Assembly (NCBI RefSeq): GCF_002854065.1
Contig: NZ_CP024147.1
Strand: one strand, 5' to 3'
DNA from: Escherichia coli
Lineage (GTDB): Bacteria; Pseudomonadota; Gammaproteobacteria; Enterobacterales; Enterobacteriaceae
Length of the DNA stretch: 64,000 nucleotides
Of the stretch, positions 4,736-23,053 are shown piece by piece. The position numbers were made by a program, and so were the translations under genes. Numbering within the stretch: the first letter of the stretch is position 1; every line of letters begins with the position of its first letter. The notes beneath the pieces are model-generated. The model was not told where the DNA came from and did no database searches. It saw only the letters and a program-made list of their open reading frames with translations.

Positions 4736-5689
4736 TTAACCTATCTCCTGTAACGCATGTCTCTGGCGTTCGACGATATTGGTCCACAAATTGTCTTTAT
4801 CGTCAGTCCACAAATTAATCAGCAAGGCAAAAAAGCGTTCAGCTGCCGGAGAAAGCACGGCATCTTTGCGGCGAATAATCCCCAATGTCCGACGTATAAC
4901 GGGTTCCACCAGTGGGATACCAATAATCGAAGAATAGGGCGCATGGGGCATTGCCAGACCAGGAAGCGCTGAAATCCCCAGTCCTGCCTCCACCAGTCCT
5001 AATGACGTCGAAAGATGACGCACTTCGTAAAACCAGTCCAGCTTCCAGGGCTTGTCGGCTAGCTGTTGTTCTATCAACAGTCGGTTGCCGCTGGAGGAGC
5101 GTACGCCAATCATTTTGTAACCCACTAACTCCTGCCATTCTACAAGCTGCTTTTTGGCCAATGGATGGTCACGCCGACAGGCCAGCACGAACGGCTCGTT
5201 GACCAGTGGGCTAAAATCAATGGATGAATTTGTGACGTTGTTCATGTTTATGCCAAAGTCTGATTCGTTACATAGCACCGATTCCATGCAATTATTCGTG
5301 CCTTGTTCCAGAATCCGCACTTTAATATTGGGATACAGCTCATTAAATTTACCGATTGCCAGCGGTAAAAAATAAAATACTGCGGTCGGAATACACGCTA
5401 ACGTCACCATACCACGATGATAAGCATTCATATCACGAATATTAAAAAGCGTTTCATCGAATTTCTTTATTAATTCCCGCGCCTCCGGGAGCAACCTTTT
5501 TCCTGCTTTTGTTAACGTAACCTTGCGAGTTGTACGCTCAAATAGTTGAATATGTAAATCTTCCTCCATCTTTTTTATTCTTCGCGTTAATGCAGGTTGC
5601 GTAATGTTGAGTAATTTAGCGGCATTGTTAAATGAACTGGACTCTGCCAGTATGACAAATGCCTTCATACTTGATAATTCATGCTTCAT
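4736..5689 (-). CDS. ybhD: LysR-family transcriptional regulator
   Basis: N-terminal HTH typical of LysR; start chosen at MKHELSS (317 aa) with GGAG Shine-Dalgarno. Confidence 0.88.
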   Translation of the reverse strand: MKHELSSMKAFVILAESSSFNNAAKLLNITQPALTRRIKKMEEDLHIQLFERTTRKVTLTKAGKRLLPEARELIKKFDETLFNIRDMNAYHRGMVTLACIPTAVFYFLPLAIGKFNELYPNIKVRILEQGTNNCMESVLCNESDFGINMNNVTNSSIDFSPLVNEPFVLACRRDHPLAKKQLVEWQELVGYKMIGVRSSSGNRLLIEQQLADKPWKLDWFYEVRHLSTSLGLVEAGLGISALPGLAMPHAPYSSIIGIPLVEPVIRRTLGIIRRKDAVLSPAAERFFALLINLWTDDKDNLWTNIVERQRHALQEIG

Positions 5690-5733
5690 TATTACTCCGG
5701 AAAATGGAAGCGTTGATTTTGGGTGGCTGGCCG

Positions 5734-5746
5734 TTAAAAATTTTAA
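5734..5746. promoter_or_regulatory. Candidate LysR-type T-N11-A box in ybhD/ybhH divergent region
   Basis: Palindrome TTAAAAATTTTAA in the divergent intergenic region. Confidence 0.35.
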
Positions 5747-5872
5747 CTGCATTTAGCCAACTTAAATTAATGAAAAAATGTTATTAATCGTTGAGCTAAA
5801 GTCATTAGAGATGCTTTGCCCTTAATGTAACCATATCGCAATAAGTTATATTTTTAAATTGAGGGCATTATT

Positions 5873-6925
5873 ATGAAAAAAATACCCTGCGTGATGATGC
5901 GAGGTGGAACCTCGAGGGGCGCGTTCCTGTTAGCGGAACATTTACCCGAAGATCAAACGCAGCGCGATAAAATATTGATGGCAATTATGGGTTCCGGTAA
6001 CGATCTGGAAATTGACGGTATTGGCGGCGGTAATCCGCTGACCAGTAAAGTCGCCATTATTAGCCGTTCCAGCGATCCGCGTGCTGATGTCGATTATCTG
6101 TTTGCTCAAGTTATCGTCCATGAGCAACGTGTCGATACCACGCCTAACTGCGGCAATATGCTGTCTGGCGTTGGGGCATTCGCCATTGAAAATGGTTTGA
6201 TTGCAGCGACTTCGCCAGTTACCCGCGTACGTATCCGCAACGTCAATACGGGTACGTTTATCGAAGCTGATGTGCAAACACCAAATGGTGTTGTCGAGTA
6301 CGAGGGTAGCGCCAGAATTGACGGCGTACCGGGTACTGCCGCACCGGTTGCGCTCACTTTCCTGAATGCCGCTGGAACGAAAACCGGAAAAGTTTTCCCG
6401 ACTGATAATCAGATTGATTATTTTGACGATGTCCCGGTGACCTGTATCGATATGGCGATGCCAGTCGTCATTATTCCGGCTGAATATCTGGGAAAAACAG
6501 GCTATGAATTACCGGCGGAACTGGATGCCGACAAAGCATTATTAGCCCGCATTGAATCTATCCGTCTACAAGCGGGTAAAGCAATGGGCTTAGGTGATGT
6601 CAGTAATATGGTTATCCCTAAACCTGTGCTTATTTCTCCAGCGCAGAAAGGCGGGGCAATTAATGTGCGTTATTTTATGCCGCATTCTTGCCATCGCGCG
6701 TTGGCGATAACCGGTGCTATTGCTATTTCCAGTAGTTGTGCATTGGAAGGCACCGTCACCCGACAAATCATCCCTTCTGTAGGATATGGCAATATCAATA
6801 TTGAACCCCCCAGTGGTGCGCTCGACGTTCATTTAAGTAATGAAGGTCAGGATGCCACGACGTTACGCTCATCTGTTATTCGGACGACCAGAAAAATATT
6901 TTCCGGTGAAGTTTATCTTCCCTGA
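5873..6925 (+). CDS. ybhH: PrpF/AcnD-accessory-like isomerase family protein
   Basis: 350 aa; recognised YbhH sequence. Confidence 0.85.
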   Translation: MKKIPCVMMRGGTSRGAFLLAEHLPEDQTQRDKILMAIMGSGNDLEIDGIGGGNPLTSKVAIISRSSDPRADVDYLFAQVIVHEQRVDTTPNCGNMLSGVGAFAIENGLIAATSPVTRVRIRNVNTGTFIEADVQTPNGVVEYEGSARIDGVPGTAAPVALTFLNAAGTKTGKVFPTDNQIDYFDDVPVTCIDMAMPVVIIPAEYLGKTGYELPAELDADKALLARIESIRLQAGKAMGLGDVSNMVIPKPVLISPAQKGGAINVRYFMPHSCHRALAITGAIAISSSCALEGTVTRQIIPSVGYGNINIEPPSGALDVHLSNEGQDATTLRSSVIRTTRKIFSGEVYLP

Positions 6926-7000
6926 AAAGATTCGTTGTCAGGATAAGGACAATCAATAAAGGACTTCTGTATGAGTCATACAGAAAGAACAGGATTTTAA

Positions 7001-8434
7001 ATGAATAAGAAATCGTTATGGAAGCTAATTCTGATATTAGCGATCCCATGTATTATTGGCTTTATGCCAGCTCCGGCAGGATTAAGCGAACTGGCGTGGG
7101 TGCTTTTTGGTATTTACCTGGCGGCCATTGTGGGGCTGGTTATCAAGCCTTTCCCGGAACCTGTCGTACTGTTAATTGCCGTTGCTGCCTCCATGGTGGT
7201 GGTCGGTAACTTATCCGACGGTGCGTTTAAAACCACCGCCGTATTAAGCGGTTACTCTTCAGGTACTACCTGGCTGGTGTTCTCGGCGTTTACCTTAAGC
7301 GCCGCATTTGTGACCACCGGTTTAGGTAAACGTATTGCCTATCTGCTGATTGGTAAAATCGGTAACACCACGCTGGGTCTGGGTTACGTTACGGTATTCC
7401 TCGATCTGGTACTGGCTCCGGCAACACCGTCTAACACCGCGCGTGCGGGCGGCATTGTGTTACCGATCATCAACAGCGTGGCGGTAGCTTTGGGGTCCGA
7501 ACCGGAAAAAAGTCCGCGTCGTGTCGGACATTACCTGATGATGTCCATTTACATGGTCACCAAAACCACCAGCTATATGTTCTTTACCGCAATGGCGGGG
7601 AACATTCTGGCGCTGAAAATGATCAACGACATTCTGCACCTGCAAATTAGCTGGGGTGGATGGGCGCTGGCCGCCGGATTGCCGGGCATCATTATGCTGC
7701 TGGTCACCCCGCTGGTGATTTACACCATGTATCCACCAGAAATTAAGAAGGTGGATAACAAAACCATCGCTAAAGCGGGCCTTGCCGAACTGGGACCGAT
7801 GAAAATCCGCGAAAAAATGCTGCTCGGTGTCTTTGTGCTGGCGCTGCTGGGCTGGATTTTCAGTAAGTCTCTGGGGGTTGATGAATCCACCGTGGCAATC
7901 GTTGTTATGGCGACCATGCTGCTGCTGGGTATCGTTACCTGGGAAGACGTGGTTAAAAATAAAGGCGGCTGGAATACCTTAATCTGGTACGGCGGTATTA
8001 TCGGCTTAAGCTCCTTATTATCGAAAGTTAAATTTTTCGAATGGTTAGCTGAAGTCTTTAAAAATAACCTGGCATTTGATGGTCACGGTAACGTTGCTTT
8101 CTTCGTTATTATTTTCCTCAGCATCATCGTGCGTTATTTCTTCGCTTCCGGTAGTGCCTATATCGTTGCTATGTTACCTGTATTTGCCATGCTGGCGAAC
8201 GTCTCCGGCGCACCGTTAATGTTAACCGCGCTGGCACTGTTGTTCTCCAACTCCTATGGCGGCATGGTTACTCACTATGGCGGCGCGGCAGGTCCGGTCA
8301 TCTTTGGCGTGGGTTACAACGATATTAAATCCTGGTGGTTGGTCGGTGCGGTACTGACGATATTAACCTTCCTGGTGCATATCACCCTCGGCGTATGGTG
8401 GTGGAATATGCTGATCGGCTGGAACATGCTGTAA
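7001..8434 (+). CDS. ybhI: DASS-family (di/tricarboxylate-type) inner membrane transporter
   Basis: 477 aa polytopic membrane protein; recognised YbhI. Confidence 0.88.
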   Translation: MNKKSLWKLILILAIPCIIGFMPAPAGLSELAWVLFGIYLAAIVGLVIKPFPEPVVLLIAVAASMVVVGNLSDGAFKTTAVLSGYSSGTTWLVFSAFTLSAAFVTTGLGKRIAYLLIGKIGNTTLGLGYVTVFLDLVLAPATPSNTARAGGIVLPIINSVAVALGSEPEKSPRRVGHYLMMSIYMVTKTTSYMFFTAMAGNILALKMINDILHLQISWGGWALAAGLPGIIMLLVTPLVIYTMYPPEIKKVDNKTIAKAGLAELGPMKIREKMLLGVFVLALLGWIFSKSLGVDESTVAIVVMATMLLLGIVTWEDVVKNKGGWNTLIWYGGIIGLSSLLSKVKFFEWLAEVFKNNLAFDGHGNVAFFVIIFLSIIVRYFFASGSAYIVAMLPVFAMLANVSGAPLMLTALALLFSNSYGGMVTHYGGAAGPVIFGVGYNDIKSWWLVGAVLTILTFLVHITLGVWWWNMLIGWNML

Positions 8435-8440
8435 ATATAC

Positions 8441-8566
8441 TCGTCATACTTCAAGTTGCATGTGCTGCGTCTGCGTTCGCTCACCCCAGTCACTTACTTA
8501 TGTAAGCTCCTGGGGATTCACTCGCTTGTCGCCTTCCTGCAACTCGAATTATTTAGAGTATATCCA
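8441..8566. repeat. ERIC/IRU intergenic repeat
   Basis: Contains CGCTCACCCCAGTCACTTACTTATGTAAGCTCCTGGGGATTCAC, reverse complement of the ERIC core as recalled. Confidence 0.75.
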
Positions 8567-8616
8567 TTTATTATCTTTCTGCGCACTTCACGGTGCGCAG
8601 ATATCTGGAGCATTTA

Positions 8617-10878
8617 ATGATCAAGTTATCTGAAAAAGGCGTGTTTCTCGCCAGTAATAACGAAATAATTGCCGAAGAACATTTCACCGGCGAAATTAAA
8701 AAAGAAGAAGCCAAAAAAGGCACTATTGCCTGGTCTATTCTCTCTTCTCATAATACGTCCGGAAATATGGATAAACTTAAAATTAAGTTTGATTCATTAG
8801 CCTCTCACGATATTACCTTTGTTGGTATTGTACAGACCGCTAAAGCGTCCGGTATGGAACGTTTCCCGCTGCCGTATGTGCTGACCAACTGCCATAACTC
8901 ACTTTGCGCCATCGGCGGCACCATTAACGGTGATGACCATGTTTTTGGTTTATCGGCGGCTCAGCGTTATGGCGGTATTTTTGTGCCTCCGCATATTGCG
9001 GTCATCCATCAATATATGCGTGAGATGATGGCAGGTGGCGGCAAAATGATCCTCGGGTCAGACAGTCACACCCGTTACGGTGCATTAGGGACAATGGCAG
9101 TCGGTGAGGGCGGCGGCGAGTTGGTAAAACAATTGCTTAATGACACCTGGGATATCGACTATCCGGGAGTTGTTGCGGTGCATCTGACCGGAAAACCAGC
9201 GCCGTATGTGGGGCCGCAGGATGTGGCGCTGGCTATCATCGGTGCCGTGTTCAAAAACGGCTACGTCAAAAACAAAGTGATGGAATTCGTAGGTCCCGGT
9301 GTTGCTGCGCTCTCTACCGATTTCCGTAACAGCGTTGACGTTATGACCACTGAAACGACCTGTTTAAGTTCTGTCTGGCAAACCGATGAAGAAGTCCATA
9401 ACTGGCTGGCGCTGCACGGTCGCGGCCAGGATTACTGCCAGCTTAACCCTCAACCGATGGCGTACTACGATGGCTGCATCAGCGTTGATTTAAGCGCCAT
9501 CAAACCAATGATTGCGCTGCCGTTCCACCCGAGCAACGTGTATGAAATCGACACACTGAACCAGAACCTGACCGACATTCTGCGTGAGATTGAAATTGAG
9601 TCCGAACGCGTGGCGCACGGTAAAGCCAAACTCTCGCTGCTGGACAAAGTGGAAAATGGTCGCCTGAAAGTGCAGCAGGGGATTATCGCGGGCTGTTCTG
9701 GCGGTAACTACGAAAACGTCATCGCGGCGGCGAATGCACTGCGCGGTCAATCCTGTGGCAATGACACCTTCTCGCTGGCGGTTTACCCGTCATCACAGCC
9801 GGTGTTTATGGATTTAGCCAAAAAAGGTGTGGTAGCAGATTTGATTGGCGCAGGCGCAATTATCAGAACCGCGTTCTGCGGCCCATGCTTTGGCGCGGGC
9901 GATACGCCAATCAACAACGGTTTGAGTATTCGCCACACCACGCGTAACTTCCCGAACCGCGAAGGCTCTAAGCCAGCTAATGGGCAGATGTCAGCGGTGG
10001 CGTTGATGGACGCTCGTTCTATCGCTGCGACTGCGGCAAACGGTGGCTATTTAACCTCTGCCAGCGAACTCGATTGCTGGGACAACGTGTCGGAGTACGC
10101 CTTCGATGTAACGCCGTATAAAAATCGCGTCTATCAAGGCTTTGTGAAAGGGGCGACCCAGCAACCGCTGATTTACGGACCGAACATTAAAGACTGGCCG
10201 GAATTGGGTGCGCTGACTGACAATATCGTCCTCAAAGTGTGCTCGAAGATCCTCGACGAAGTGACCACCACCGACGAATTGATTCCTTCCGGTGAAACCT
10301 CTTCTTATCGTTCAAATCCGATTGGTCTGGCGGAGTTTACCCTGTCACGCCGCGATCCAGGTTATGTTGGCAGAAGTAAAGCGACTGCTGAGCTGGAAAA
10401 TCAGCGTCTGGCGGGGAATGTCAGCGAGCTGACAGAGGTGTTTGCGCGCATTAAGCAGATTGCTGGTCAGGAGCATATTGATCCGCTGCAAACTGAAATT
10501 GGCAGCATGGTCTATGCGGTGAAACCAGGCGATGGTTCTGCGCGTGAACAGGCGGCGAGCTGCCAGCGTGTGATTGGCGGTCTGGCGAATATTGCCGAGG
10601 AGTACGCGACTAAACGCTACCGTTCTAACGTCATCAACTGGGGGATGTTACCTTTGCAGATGGCGGAAGTGCCAACCTTTGAAGTGGGGGATTACATTTA
10701 CATCCCTGGCATTAAAGCGGCGCTGGATAATCCGGGTACGACGTTTAAAGGTTATGTGATCCATGAAGATGCGCCGGTAACGGAAATTACGCTCTATATG
10801 GAAAGTCTGACTGCTGAAGAGCGCGAGATTATCAAGGCGGGTAGTTTGATTAACTTCAATAAAAACCGTCAGATGTAA
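8617..10878 (+). CDS. ybhJ: Aconitase-family protein (aconitase X-like)
   Basis: Start chosen at MIKLSEKG (753 aa) with GGAG Shine-Dalgarno; recognised YbhJ. Confidence 0.88.
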
Positions 10879-10884
10879 AAAGCA

Positions 10885-11010
10885 CCATGTGAATGTAGGT
10901 CGCATTCGGCACTTATTGTCGGATGCGATGCTGGCGCATCTTATCCGACCTACAAATCGCATCGAACCGTAGGCCGGATAAGGCGTTTACGCCGCATCCA
11001 GCAAATAGTT
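10885..11010. repeat. REP/BIME palindromic repeats
   Basis: GCCGGATAAGGCGTTTACGCCGCATCC and CGGATGCGATGCTGGCGCATCTTATCCG units between convergent ybhJ and ybhC. Confidence 0.8.
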
Positions 11011-11018
11011 AATAGCTC

Positions 11019-12302
11019 TTACTTCTTCGCCTCTGCAACCACTTTGCTACCCACGCCGCGGTTATTGTATTCCCACATGCGGTTGTAGTTAGTGTCATTC
11101 AGATTGCGCTGTATTTCGTCGCTATCGTCAACGCTGCCGGTATTACCCGCAAACGGACGATTAGAGATCACCGCATCGCCCCACGGTTTAACCGTGTTAA
11201 AACCTTCGTTGATGGCGCTATCACGGATCACCACCTGACCGTTGGTATTGGCATCAACATCCAGCGAGCGGCCCAGTTGCGCCACGCCATCACCGGAAGC
11301 ATTGAAACGGCTGTTTACGGCGAGGAAACCGTAATAGATGTTGGACAGCGTAGCCGGTGCAAACACATACGCTTCTTGCTGAGTACGTGAGTTCACCACG
11401 CGGAATTCGGTGTTATCGAACACCACTGCACCGCGACCAGAAACGATATCCACATCCCCTTCAATATAGCTGTTGGTCACCAGCGTACGCGGCTGACGAT
11501 TCGTTTCCAGACGGTTCTGCACACCGCTGTTGGTGACAAAGAAGGTGTTCTGACGACCGAGAATGTTAACGTTGTTAATCTGTACCTGGTCACCGTCAGT
11601 ACGCAGTGCCACCGCCGGATGGTTACCCGCATCTACGCTATCACCCAGCGTGTTTTCGATGGTCAGGTTTTGCAGTTGCAGGCCATTATTTTGTGACCAG
11701 AAGACCGCAGAACACAGAACACCGATACTGTCGCTGCGTTTGCTCTGGCAGCTATCGTACATATACCACGCTGGTTTACCTGGCATATATTTGCCGCGCG
11801 GGTTGACGTCGTGACGCCAGTCGGCAGGGCTCATGCCCCCATCAAGGGAAAGCCCAATCTTCACATCAATCGGTTTTTCACCTGTACCGTACAGAGTAAT
11901 TCCACCTGGAGCAGCAGGGACATACACCGTTCCCTGATACTCACCAGGCATCACGGCAATATACTGGCGCTTGTTAGTGCGCTTGATAATTGCCGCATCT
12001 ACCGCCGCCTGAATCGTGGTATGCGTTACACCTTGAGTACCCGCCGGGCCGACAACAAAGTCAGGTTGCGCAGGCAGGGTTATCGGGGACGGATTCCACG
12101 CTGCAGCACCTGGTGTCAGGGATGCAAAATAGTGTTGAGCATCGAAATTCTGCGCTTCTTTTGCCGACAGAATCGGGCGAGAAGAGGTACCAGGCGCAGT
12201 TTGATCAGAAGGACGTTGATCGGGTGGTGTTGAGCTACAGGCGGTCAGCGTCACGCCAAAAGCCAATGCCAGCGCCAGACGGGAAACTGAAAATGTGTTC
12301 AC
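11019..12302 (-). CDS. ybhC: Outer-membrane lipoprotein, pectinesterase-like fold
   Basis: 427 aa; lipobox LTAC in signal peptide; recognised YbhC. Confidence 0.9.
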   Translation of the reverse strand: MNTFSVSRLALALAFGVTLTACSSTPPDQRPSDQTAPGTSSRPILSAKEAQNFDAQHYFASLTPGAAAWNPSPITLPAQPDFVVGPAGTQGVTHTTIQAAVDAAIIKRTNKRQYIAVMPGEYQGTVYVPAAPGGITLYGTGEKPIDVKIGLSLDGGMSPADWRHDVNPRGKYMPGKPAWYMYDSCQSKRSDSIGVLCSAVFWSQNNGLQLQNLTIENTLGDSVDAGNHPAVALRTDGDQVQINNVNILGRQNTFFVTNSGVQNRLETNRQPRTLVTNSYIEGDVDIVSGRGAVVFDNTEFRVVNSRTQQEAYVFAPATLSNIYYGFLAVNSRFNASGDGVAQLGRSLDVDANTNGQVVIRDSAINEGFNTVKPWGDAVISNRPFAGNTGSVDDSDEIQRNLNDTNYNRMWEYNNRGVGSKVVAEAKK

Positions 12303-21924: not shown

Positions 21925-22063
21925 TATCGGCTTAACCACTAAACACTCTAGCCTCTGCACCTGGGTCAACTGATACGGTGCTTTGGCCGTGACAATGCTC
22001 GTAAAGATTGCCACCAGGGCGAAGGAAGAAATGACTTCGCCTCCCGTATCTGGAAAGGTGTAC
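21925..22063 (+). ncRNA. Putative molybdenum-cofactor (Moco) riboswitch in moaA 5' UTR; borders approximate
   Basis: Structured GC-rich leader directly upstream of moaA with CCUCCC near the start codon; position matches the known Moco RNA motif of moaABCDE. Confidence 0.5.
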
Positions 22064-23053
22064 ATGGCTTCACAACTGACTGATGCATTTGCGCGTAAGT
22101 TTTACTACTTGCGCCTGTCGATTACCGATGTGTGTAACTTTCGTTGCACCTACTGCCTGCCGGATGGCTACAAACCGAGCGGCGTCACCAATAAAGGCTT
22201 TCTGACCGTCGATGAAATTCGCCGGGTTACGCGCGCCTTCGCCAGTCTGGGCACCGAAAAAGTCCGTCTGACAGGTGGTGAGCCGTCTTTACGCCGCGAC
22301 TTTACCGATATCATCGCCGCTGTGCGAGAAAATGACGCTATCCGCCAGATTGCGGTCACCACCAATGGTTACCGTCTGGAACGCGATGTGGCGAACTGGC
22401 GCGATGCTGGACTTACTGGCATCAACGTCAGCGTTGATAGTCTGGACGCCCGCCAGTTTCACGCTATTACCGGGCAGGATAAATTCAACCAGGTGATGGC
22501 AGGGATTGATGCTGCATTTGAGGCTGGTTTTGAGAAGGTCAAAGTCAATACCGTGCTGATGCGTGATGTGAATCATCACCAGCTCGACACCTTTCTGAAC
22601 TGGATCCAGCATCGCCCTATCCAGCTGCGTTTCATCGAACTGATGGAAACGGGCGAGGGCAGCGAGCTCTTCCGTAAGCATCACATCTCTGGTCAGGTTC
22701 TGCGTGACGAGCTACTGCGTCGCGGCTGGATCCACCAATTACGTCAACGCAGCGACGGTCCCGCGCAAGTCTTTTGTCATCCGGATTACGCCGGAGAGAT
22801 TGGCCTTATCATGCCGTATGAAAAAGACTTCTGCGCCACTTGCAACCGTCTGCGCGTTTCCTCCATTGGTAAACTCCATCTCTGCCTGTTTGGTGAAGGC
22901 GGCGTTAACCTGCGCGATCTGCTGGAAGACGATACCCAGCAACAGGCGCTGGAAGCGCGTATTTCAGCGGCGCTGCGGGAGAAGAAACAGACCCATTTCC
23001 TGCATCAAAACAACACCGGTATTACGCAAAACTTATCGTACATTGGCGGCTAA
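22064..23053 (+). CDS. moaA: GTP 3',8-cyclase (radical SAM)
   Basis: Start at MASQLTDAF (329 aa); CNFRCTYC motif. Confidence 0.95.

Follow-up and report, generated by a model that had tools for sequence, protein, structure and literature searches.

The spacer between the ybhI and ybhJ genes of Escherichia coli contains a palindromic repeat, and the question raised by this locus is what the repeat does, if anything, to the expression of the genes on either side of it. The locus was analyzed in a 64,000-nucleotide stretch of the E. coli chromosome (the window) that is, in this region, approximately 99% identical to K-12. The repeat was found to belong to the ERIC family, which has been known since 1990–91 and is best known as a target for PCR typing. 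The ERIC, IRU, or RU-1 elements of the Enterobacteriaceae were reportedly described by Sharples and Lloyd in 1990, Hulton et al. in 1991, and Wilson and Sharp in 2006. The copy between ybhI and ybhJ is an ordinary member of this family, and both the kind of element and the mechanism proposed for it below are already known.

Gene Cluster and Transcription Signals

The first gene of the cluster is ybhH (5873–6925, + strand), which encodes an isomerase of the PrpF family and was assigned from the list of open reading frames, the K-12 annotation, and synteny in five species. It is followed by ybhI (7001–8434, + strand), which is annotated in K-12 and in other E. coli, encodes an anion permease of the DASS family, and ends with a TAA stop codon at 8432–8434. 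The third gene, ybhJ (8617–10878, + strand), encodes a hydratase of the aconitase family with 753 residues, as in K-12; its ribosome binding site and start (8607–8619, + strand) were read from the sequence as GGAG at 8607–8610 and ATG at 8617–8619. The gene for the regulator, ybhD, is found on the – strand. The spacer between ybhI and ybhJ is 182 nt long, the same length as in K-12. The order ybhD, ybhH-ybhI-ybhJ is kept across five enterobacterial species, and the initial annotation correctly placed the repeat between two co-directional genes of one cluster. YbhD represses the cluster, and a study of a ybhD deletion lists ybhH and ybhI as derepressed and leaves ybhJ unnamed (PMC9068703).

A scan of positions 5600–11200 for promoters and terminators detected neither kind of consensus within the spacer (8435–8616). 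The combination of a GC-rich stem and a U tract that marks an intrinsic terminator is absent from 8435–8616, and a hairpin at 8578–8601 is followed by UAUCUGGAG. Since the ERIC has neither a promoter nor a terminator of its own, it is most likely co-transcribed as part of a ybhH-ybhI-ybhJ message. The 3′-end tables of Adams (2021) list no end at the junction, and their sole entry here is an antisense end inside ybhJ on the – strand (K-12 position 805363). The SMRT-Cappable-seq tables make no mention of ybhH, ybhI, or ybhJ, and the supplements to the ybhD-deletion paper give no numbers for these three genes.

Several other features of the region were recorded. Sigma-70-like hexamers were detected by the promoter scan at 8726–8754 (+ strand), inside ybhJ, and an antisense sRNA candidate, ECS012, has been reported within ybhJ on the – strand (PMC3175480). 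The remaining literature on ybhJ was set aside as irrelevant; it consists of strain genotypes, a misprint for YhbJ, and an RNA polymerase occupancy list for an rpoZ mutant. The convergent spacer between ybhJ and ybhC, on the 3′ side of ybhJ, holds a REP/BIME block (GCCGGATAAGGCGTTTACGCCGCATCC...) at 10879–11018, and the cluster therefore has an ERIC partway along it and ends with a BIME on the 3′ side. The 93-nt unit of this BIME is present once in the window, about twice in K-12, and 5.1 times in E. albertii (contig L002, 6287–6760). Elsewhere in the window, a molybdenum cofactor (Moco) riboswitch was located upstream of the moa genes at 21932–22076 (+ strand, 103 bits), and a match to Rfam naRNA4 (nucleoid-associated ncRNA 4) at 44677–44747 (– strand, 78 bits) is presumably a REP-derived element. 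YbhJ itself is 66–74% identical in amino acid sequence to proteins of Lachnospiraceae, Clostridia, Collinsella, and Megasphaera, where ybhH and ybhI neighbors are almost never present. Their near-absence suggests that the hydratase gene was transferred between phyla and that the cluster was put together in the enterobacteria.

Identity and Anatomy of the Element

The initial annotation had described a full-length ERIC-like palindrome at 8441–8566. The object was correctly recognized, and its ends were misplaced by 4–5 nt. From the family alignment, the ERIC/IRU element occupies 8436–8562, lies on the – strand in the published consensus orientation, and is 127 nt long when both flanking TA dinucleotides are included. 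These dinucleotides, at 8436–8437 on the left and 8561–8562 on the right, are the two copies of a target-site duplication, as judged from the empty site of strain GF4-3 (see below). All 127 positions were aligned end to end with 71 other ERIC members. The conserved central core at 8478–8521 comprises the sites of primers ERIC2 and ERIC1R; it is the exact reverse complement of ERIC2 followed by ERIC1R at 44 of 44 positions, a match that was obtained in none of 100 shuffled sequences. The two primer sequences co-occur in 246 papers. The spacer element is a genuine full-length ERIC (IRU) miniature inverted-repeat element. In its length of 127 nt, exact core, palindromic terminal inverted repeats (TIRs), TA duplication, intergenic location, and multiple copies, it shows no difference of substance from the described ERIC/IRU/RU-1 elements.

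The symmetric region extends over 8435–8563. The left TIR arm (8435–8460) is 26 nt long and 81% complementary to the right arm (8538–8563), which is the 3′ TIR in a transcript that runs from ybhI to ybhJ. The motif GAAUU at 8546–8550 (+ strand), where the 3′ TIR is AU-rich and only weakly paired, resembles RNWUU, the consensus for RNase E. The extended hairpin proposed earlier for this palindrome was recovered on folding: the predicted free energy of the + strand RNA is –43.8 kcal/mol (z = –6.3, with none of 200 shuffles as good), and that of the – strand RNA is –57.1 kcal/mol (z = –9.8). The element starts 1 nt past the TAA of ybhI, and the ybhI to ybhJ transcript carries its reverse (R) form.

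A search with the core found just this one copy in the 64-kb window, and similar copies occur at a median of 6 and a maximum of 11 places per E. coli genome by megablast. Rfam has no ERIC family as such. The – strand of the element aligned over its full length with V_AS5 (Vibrio RNA AS5, RF02818; model positions 1–129, E = 3e-9) at 46.9 bits, below the gathering score of 96, and the window ERIC is therefore not a member of V_AS5, which is itself probably a transcribed Vibrio relative of ERIC.

Insertion Site, Frequency, and Alleles in E. coli

A synthetic junction lacking the ERIC was searched against 5,426 complete E. coli genomes. The empty site was found in exactly one of them, that of strain GF4-3, isolated from guinea fowl (NZ_CP053258.1; contig L082, 4056–4075). 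The spacer of this strain is 125 nt shorter and reads CTGTAAATA/TCC (TAAATA/TCC), and its precise ERIC-less junction is CTGTAAATATCC. Because the empty site is shorter by exactly 125 nt, the element is deduced to have inserted, with duplication of the dinucleotide, into a TA located 1 nt after the ybhI stop codon. A TA target-site duplication and 5′-TA-3′ termini are documented for ERIC (PMC2229807, Table 1). The 3′ end of ybhI was present in 5,336 genomes, and 5,321 covered at least 80% of the 521-nt junction query, a coverage that is achievable only with the ERIC in place. With one empty site among 5,322 resolvable junctions, this copy is close to fixation in E. coli. Strain E06, which covers 96% of the junction, was considered as a possible ERIC variant and rejected; its ERIC is intact, and the deletion lies inside ybhI.

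The flanks of the GF4-3 junction were compared with the window as a probe of whether the empty site had come in on a divergent tract. They are 97–100% identical to the window, and ybhD alone is divergent (approximately 88%). Two substitutions, 8566 A>C and 8569 T>C, lie 4 and 7 nt past the junction and occur in no ERIC-bearing E. coli genome; the C at 8569 is the state found in E. ruysiae and Citrobacter. The empty site could have arisen by excision followed by faulty repair, could have been imported on a very short tract, or could be an allele that survives from before the insertion.

The alleles of the element differ in the stem. An A>T change at 8439, carried by K-12 and many other strains, breaks a basal pair. 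A CTC>TGA replacement at 8507–8509 was found in about 594 E. coli records (approximately 11% of genomes). Its three changes make the right half of the apical stem fully complementary to the left half, so that the stem becomes a perfect 14-bp helix and the predicted free energy moves from –43.2 to –54.1 kcal/mol. From its pattern, this allele looks like the "correction" of a quasi-palindrome by template switching.

Two other E. coli elements are nearly identical to the ybhI-ybhJ copy. The copy between cusC and cusF (contig L087) differs from it by 1 nt and that between pgk and fbaA (contig L129) by 2 nt, and it is nearer to both of these than to the C. freundii copy described below. Over 98% of the complete E. 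coli genomes carry each of the two. By sequence comparison, the ybhI-ybhJ copy belongs to an E. coli-specific, near-identical subfamily that is 10 nt from the family consensus.

Evolution across Escherichia and Citrobacter

In E. albertii, the ERIC was found at the same site in nine of nine contigs, as three alleles. These differ from the window copy at 0–1 of 127 positions, compared with 39 of 600 in the adjacent coding flank, and 27% of the third-codon positions of ybhI differ from the window. E. ruysiae, whose ybhH-ybhI sequence diverges less from that of E. coli (5.4%), lacks the element in four of four contigs and has a 67-nt spacer, TAAATACTCAAAAATATCC... (contigs L209/L216–L219). The T at 8569 is derived and shared by E. 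coli and E. albertii, with C in E. ruysiae, GF4-3, and Citrobacter. This shared derived T makes an exchange of the ERIC-bearing allele between E. coli and E. albertii a better account of their identical 172-nt tract than extreme purifying selection. A search for E. coli alleles that would bridge the gap to those of E. albertii found none. In the one other divergent orthologous ERIC pair available, the ERIC changes at about half the rate of its flanks.

In C. freundii, the equivalent TA is occupied by a different ERIC, which has the same orientation. This element differs from the E. coli copy at 14 of 127 positions and from the family consensus at 6 of 127, and comparison with the empty site of C. 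youngae again reveals a TA duplication. Empty sites were found in C. youngae, two other Citrobacter species, and Edwardsiella hoshinae. For this distribution, two independent insertions and one transfer are more parsimonious than one ancient insertion with at least four precise losses; that scenario, or concerted evolution, is a less likely alternative. The arrival of a second ERIC at the same TA in the same orientation argues that insertion at this site has not been indifferent. Against a function, the ERIC-less E. ruysiae, the three Citrobacter species, Edwardsiella, and GF4-3 all retain the gene order, and the element is therefore dispensable.

Two further observations were made on E. ruysiae. 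The TACTC that follows TAAA in its spacer matches the bases with which the ERIC begins and could be an excision footprint, a resemblance of the target site, or chance. One contig (L210) matches E. ruysiae exactly as far as the equivalent of position 7670 or so and is E. coli-like, with the ERIC, from there on. Either natural recombination or chimeric assembly would account for it, and it was treated as a possible chimera because a second contig (L211), which is E. ruysiae-like throughout and without the ERIC, shares both its sample and its contig ends.

Orientation, Folding, and Motif Content of the Family

Metagenome contigs were scanned with the core pattern, and 120 loci were recovered, of which 97 were near full length and 79 distinct. 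Nine of the 97 near-full-length loci are the ybhI-ybhJ junction itself. A 72-sequence alignment was built from the 79 distinct loci, and the orientation of each element was designated H (the published consensus) or R (its reverse). Copies in the R orientation were located within 6 nt of an upstream stop codon at 16 of 27 loci, compared with 5 of 37 for the H orientation (Fisher p = 1.6e-4). Since the TA target is symmetric, a bias of this kind at stop codons would not readily arise without selection.

The two orientations also differ as RNA. All 79 elements fold better as the H strand, with a mean predicted free energy of –56.9 versus –45.5 kcal/mol, such that the R strand is worse by approximately 11 kcal/mol. 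G·U pairs on one strand of the family become A·C mismatches on the other, and this strand asymmetry in folding is an RNA-level signature. In the 72-sequence alignment, 95.5% of the pairs are canonical, and many of the changes are compensatory; UA/AU and CG/GC swaps are found in the apical stem, and one basal pair occurs as CG, UA, AU, or GC. An RNWUU motif is present in the 3′ TIR of 59 of the 72 members when these are read in the R orientation and of 9 of the 72 when they are read as H.

An Older Stem-Loop Upstream of ybhJ

A perfect 9-bp stem-loop, TCTGCGCAC-n6-GTGCGCAGA, is found at 8578–8601 (+ strand), 5 nt upstream of the ybhJ Shine-Dalgarno sequence. It is present in the ERIC-less E. 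ruysiae, GF4-3, and C. youngae, as well as in C. freundii, and on this distribution it predates the ERIC. C. youngae shows two compensatory pairs, one E. albertii lineage has a C>U change that gives a G·U pair, and the variation falls mostly in the loop. The stem-loop is probably a selected RNA structure. The same palindrome was considered as a YbhD operator and rejected; the window has no second occurrence of the motif, and the ybhD-ybhH spacer in particular lacks it.

Proposed Effect on the ybhHI and ybhJ Messages

The closest described counterparts of this copy are the "B" ERICs of Yersinia enterocolitica (De Gregorio et al. 2005, J Bacteriol 187:7945). Reviews consistently summarize that work: Yersinia ERICs that are co-transcribed with the flanking genes lower the upstream transcript relative to the downstream one. 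The effect is described there as dependent on orientation and as acting through an RNase E site that is unmasked in the 3′ TIR, with ribosomes proposed as the trigger of the unmasking. These "B" elements share with the ybhI-ybhJ copy a position next to a stop codon and between co-directional genes. The copy also has the orientation that the present survey finds enriched at stop codons, in which the AU-rich 3′ TIR contains a candidate RNase E site, as judged by its match to the motif. We infer that the R orientation used here corresponds to the "B" orientation. The two cases differ in species and subfamily, and the apical loop of the window copy is TTAC...GTAA rather than ATAG...CTAT. An effect on mRNA is reported for Yersinia and is predicted for the window copy. 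The mechanism was demonstrated in Yersinia and not in E. coli.

Given the position 1 nt past the stop codon, the stop-adjacent orientation, and the GAAUU motif, the likeliest reading of the ybhI-ybhJ ERIC is the ribosome-gated RNase E mechanism of the Yersinia class, to which we assign a probability of roughly 40%. The element inserted with TA duplication 1 nt after the ybhI stop codon and is now almost fixed. By analogy, the following steps may be envisaged. The element would be transcribed within the ybhH-ybhI-ybhJ message in the R form, whose predicted hairpin is the less stable of the two. On reaching the ybhI stop codon, a terminating ribosome would cover the first 12 nt or so of the element and melt the basal stem, which in turn would free the AU-rich 3′ arm with its RNase E-type site at GAAUU. 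After cleavage there, 3′ exonucleases would gain access to the ybhHI segment, and the ybhJ segment would persist, its start just upstream of the stable older stem-loop, which would then sit near the new 5′ end of that segment. The net result would be a level of ybhHI mRNA that is lowered relative to ybhJ and coupled to the translation of ybhI. It is thus plausible that the decoupling of ybhJ from ybhHI suggested in the initial annotation takes the form of a decrease in ybhHI rather than an attenuation of ybhJ. The listing of ybhH and ybhI, and not ybhJ, as targets of YbhD is a weak hint in favor of this reading.

Alternative Explanations

The ERIC may instead be a passive passenger, a relic of transposition that is co-transcribed without a meaningful effect on ybhHI or ybhJ. 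Its frequency would then reflect an old insertion followed by drift or hitch-hiking, and its conservation a recent spread by recombination. This is a possibility to be taken seriously, if a tentative one, as the cluster works without an ERIC in E. ruysiae, three Citrobacter species, Edwardsiella, and GF4-3, the derived T at 8569 common to E. coli and E. albertii points to allele exchange and not to slow evolution, and the predicted hairpins of the E. coli alleles vary widely in strength, which would be odd for a finely tuned element. It is harder to reconcile with a single empty site in 5,322 resolvable junctions, with the nine of nine sampled E. albertii contigs that carry the element, with the independent, like-oriented ERIC at the equivalent TA in C. 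freundii, and with a family-wide orientation bias at stop codons that is difficult to account for without selection.

The opposite polarity has also to be considered, in which the hairpin serves as a partial terminator, a roadblock to polymerase or ribosomes, or a protector of the ybhHI 3′ end, so that ybhJ is expressed at a lower level than ybhHI. The hairpin is strong relative to shuffled sequences, the approximately 19 nt that follow it are U-rich (UCCAUUUAUUAUCUUUCU), the reported YbhD targets are ybhH and ybhI only, and REP/BIME repeats have been described in a review as stabilizers or attenuators. Like the ERIC, the REP/BIME repeats within operons such as malE-malF are repeated intergenic hairpins that may set the stabilities of mRNA segments; however, they form an unrelated sequence family, whose GC-rich REPs of about 35 nt protect the upstream RNA, and the ERIC class is reported to do the opposite. 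Reviews call this ERIC class destabilizing for upstream RNA rather than protective. With an AU-rich basal stem, a terminator scan that is empty in the spacer, and transcription in the weaker-folding orientation, attenuation of ybhJ is unlikely.

A stronger version of the ribosome-gated RNase E reading can be framed in evolutionary terms. The TA after the ybhI stop codon would be a recurrently selected landing site for ERICs, with independent gains in the same orientation in Escherichia and C. freundii, a transfer between E. coli and E. albertii that went to fixation and bypassed E. ruysiae, and an adaptive uncoupling of ybhHI from ybhJ through ribosome-gated RNase E cleavage. As a whole, this scenario is rather improbable.

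The insertion could, alternatively, have abolished a translational coupling. In the ERIC-less spacer, UCCA/CUUCA lies 7 nt past the ybhI stop codon, where ribosomes that finish ybhI could expose the ybhJ ribosome binding site; 125 nt of inserted sequence would move this anti-Shine-Dalgarno out of reach and uncouple ybhJ from the translation of ybhI. The minimum-energy fold does pair UCCA at 8563–8566 with UGGA at 8606–8609 across the base of the 8578–8601 hairpin, and GF4-3 and C. youngae have analogous pairings. However, the pairing contributes little to the folding energy and is missing in three other ERIC-less species. It is also not robust, as a longer context or a constraint for ribosome occupancy re-pairs the Shine-Dalgarno sequence elsewhere, and we regard lost coupling as very unlikely.

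Finally, a role for the palindrome at the DNA level, as a protein-binding, cruciform, or recombination site, is highly improbable in view of the approximately 11 kcal/mol strand asymmetry in 79 of 79 members and the strong orientation bias relative to genes, both of which are RNA-level signatures, even though covariation in a palindrome cannot by itself separate DNA pairing from RNA pairing.

Implications

The genes affected make up a poorly characterized transporter/isomerase/hydratase cluster under YbhD repression, and the practical consequence is small unless the ybhHIJ pathway proves to be important. What is added here is a sharper prediction, which specifies the direction of the effect, a candidate cleavage site, and a dependence on translation, together with natural alleles on which it can be examined. 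The biology of ERICs in E. coli is still largely untested, and this copy provides an unusually clean natural test set that consists of the near-fixed insertion, the empty site of GF4-3, the ERIC-less sister species E. ruysiae, two stem alleles, and the same-site insertion of C. freundii. The ERIC junctions between cusC and cusF and between pgk and fbaA are candidates for the same kind of test.
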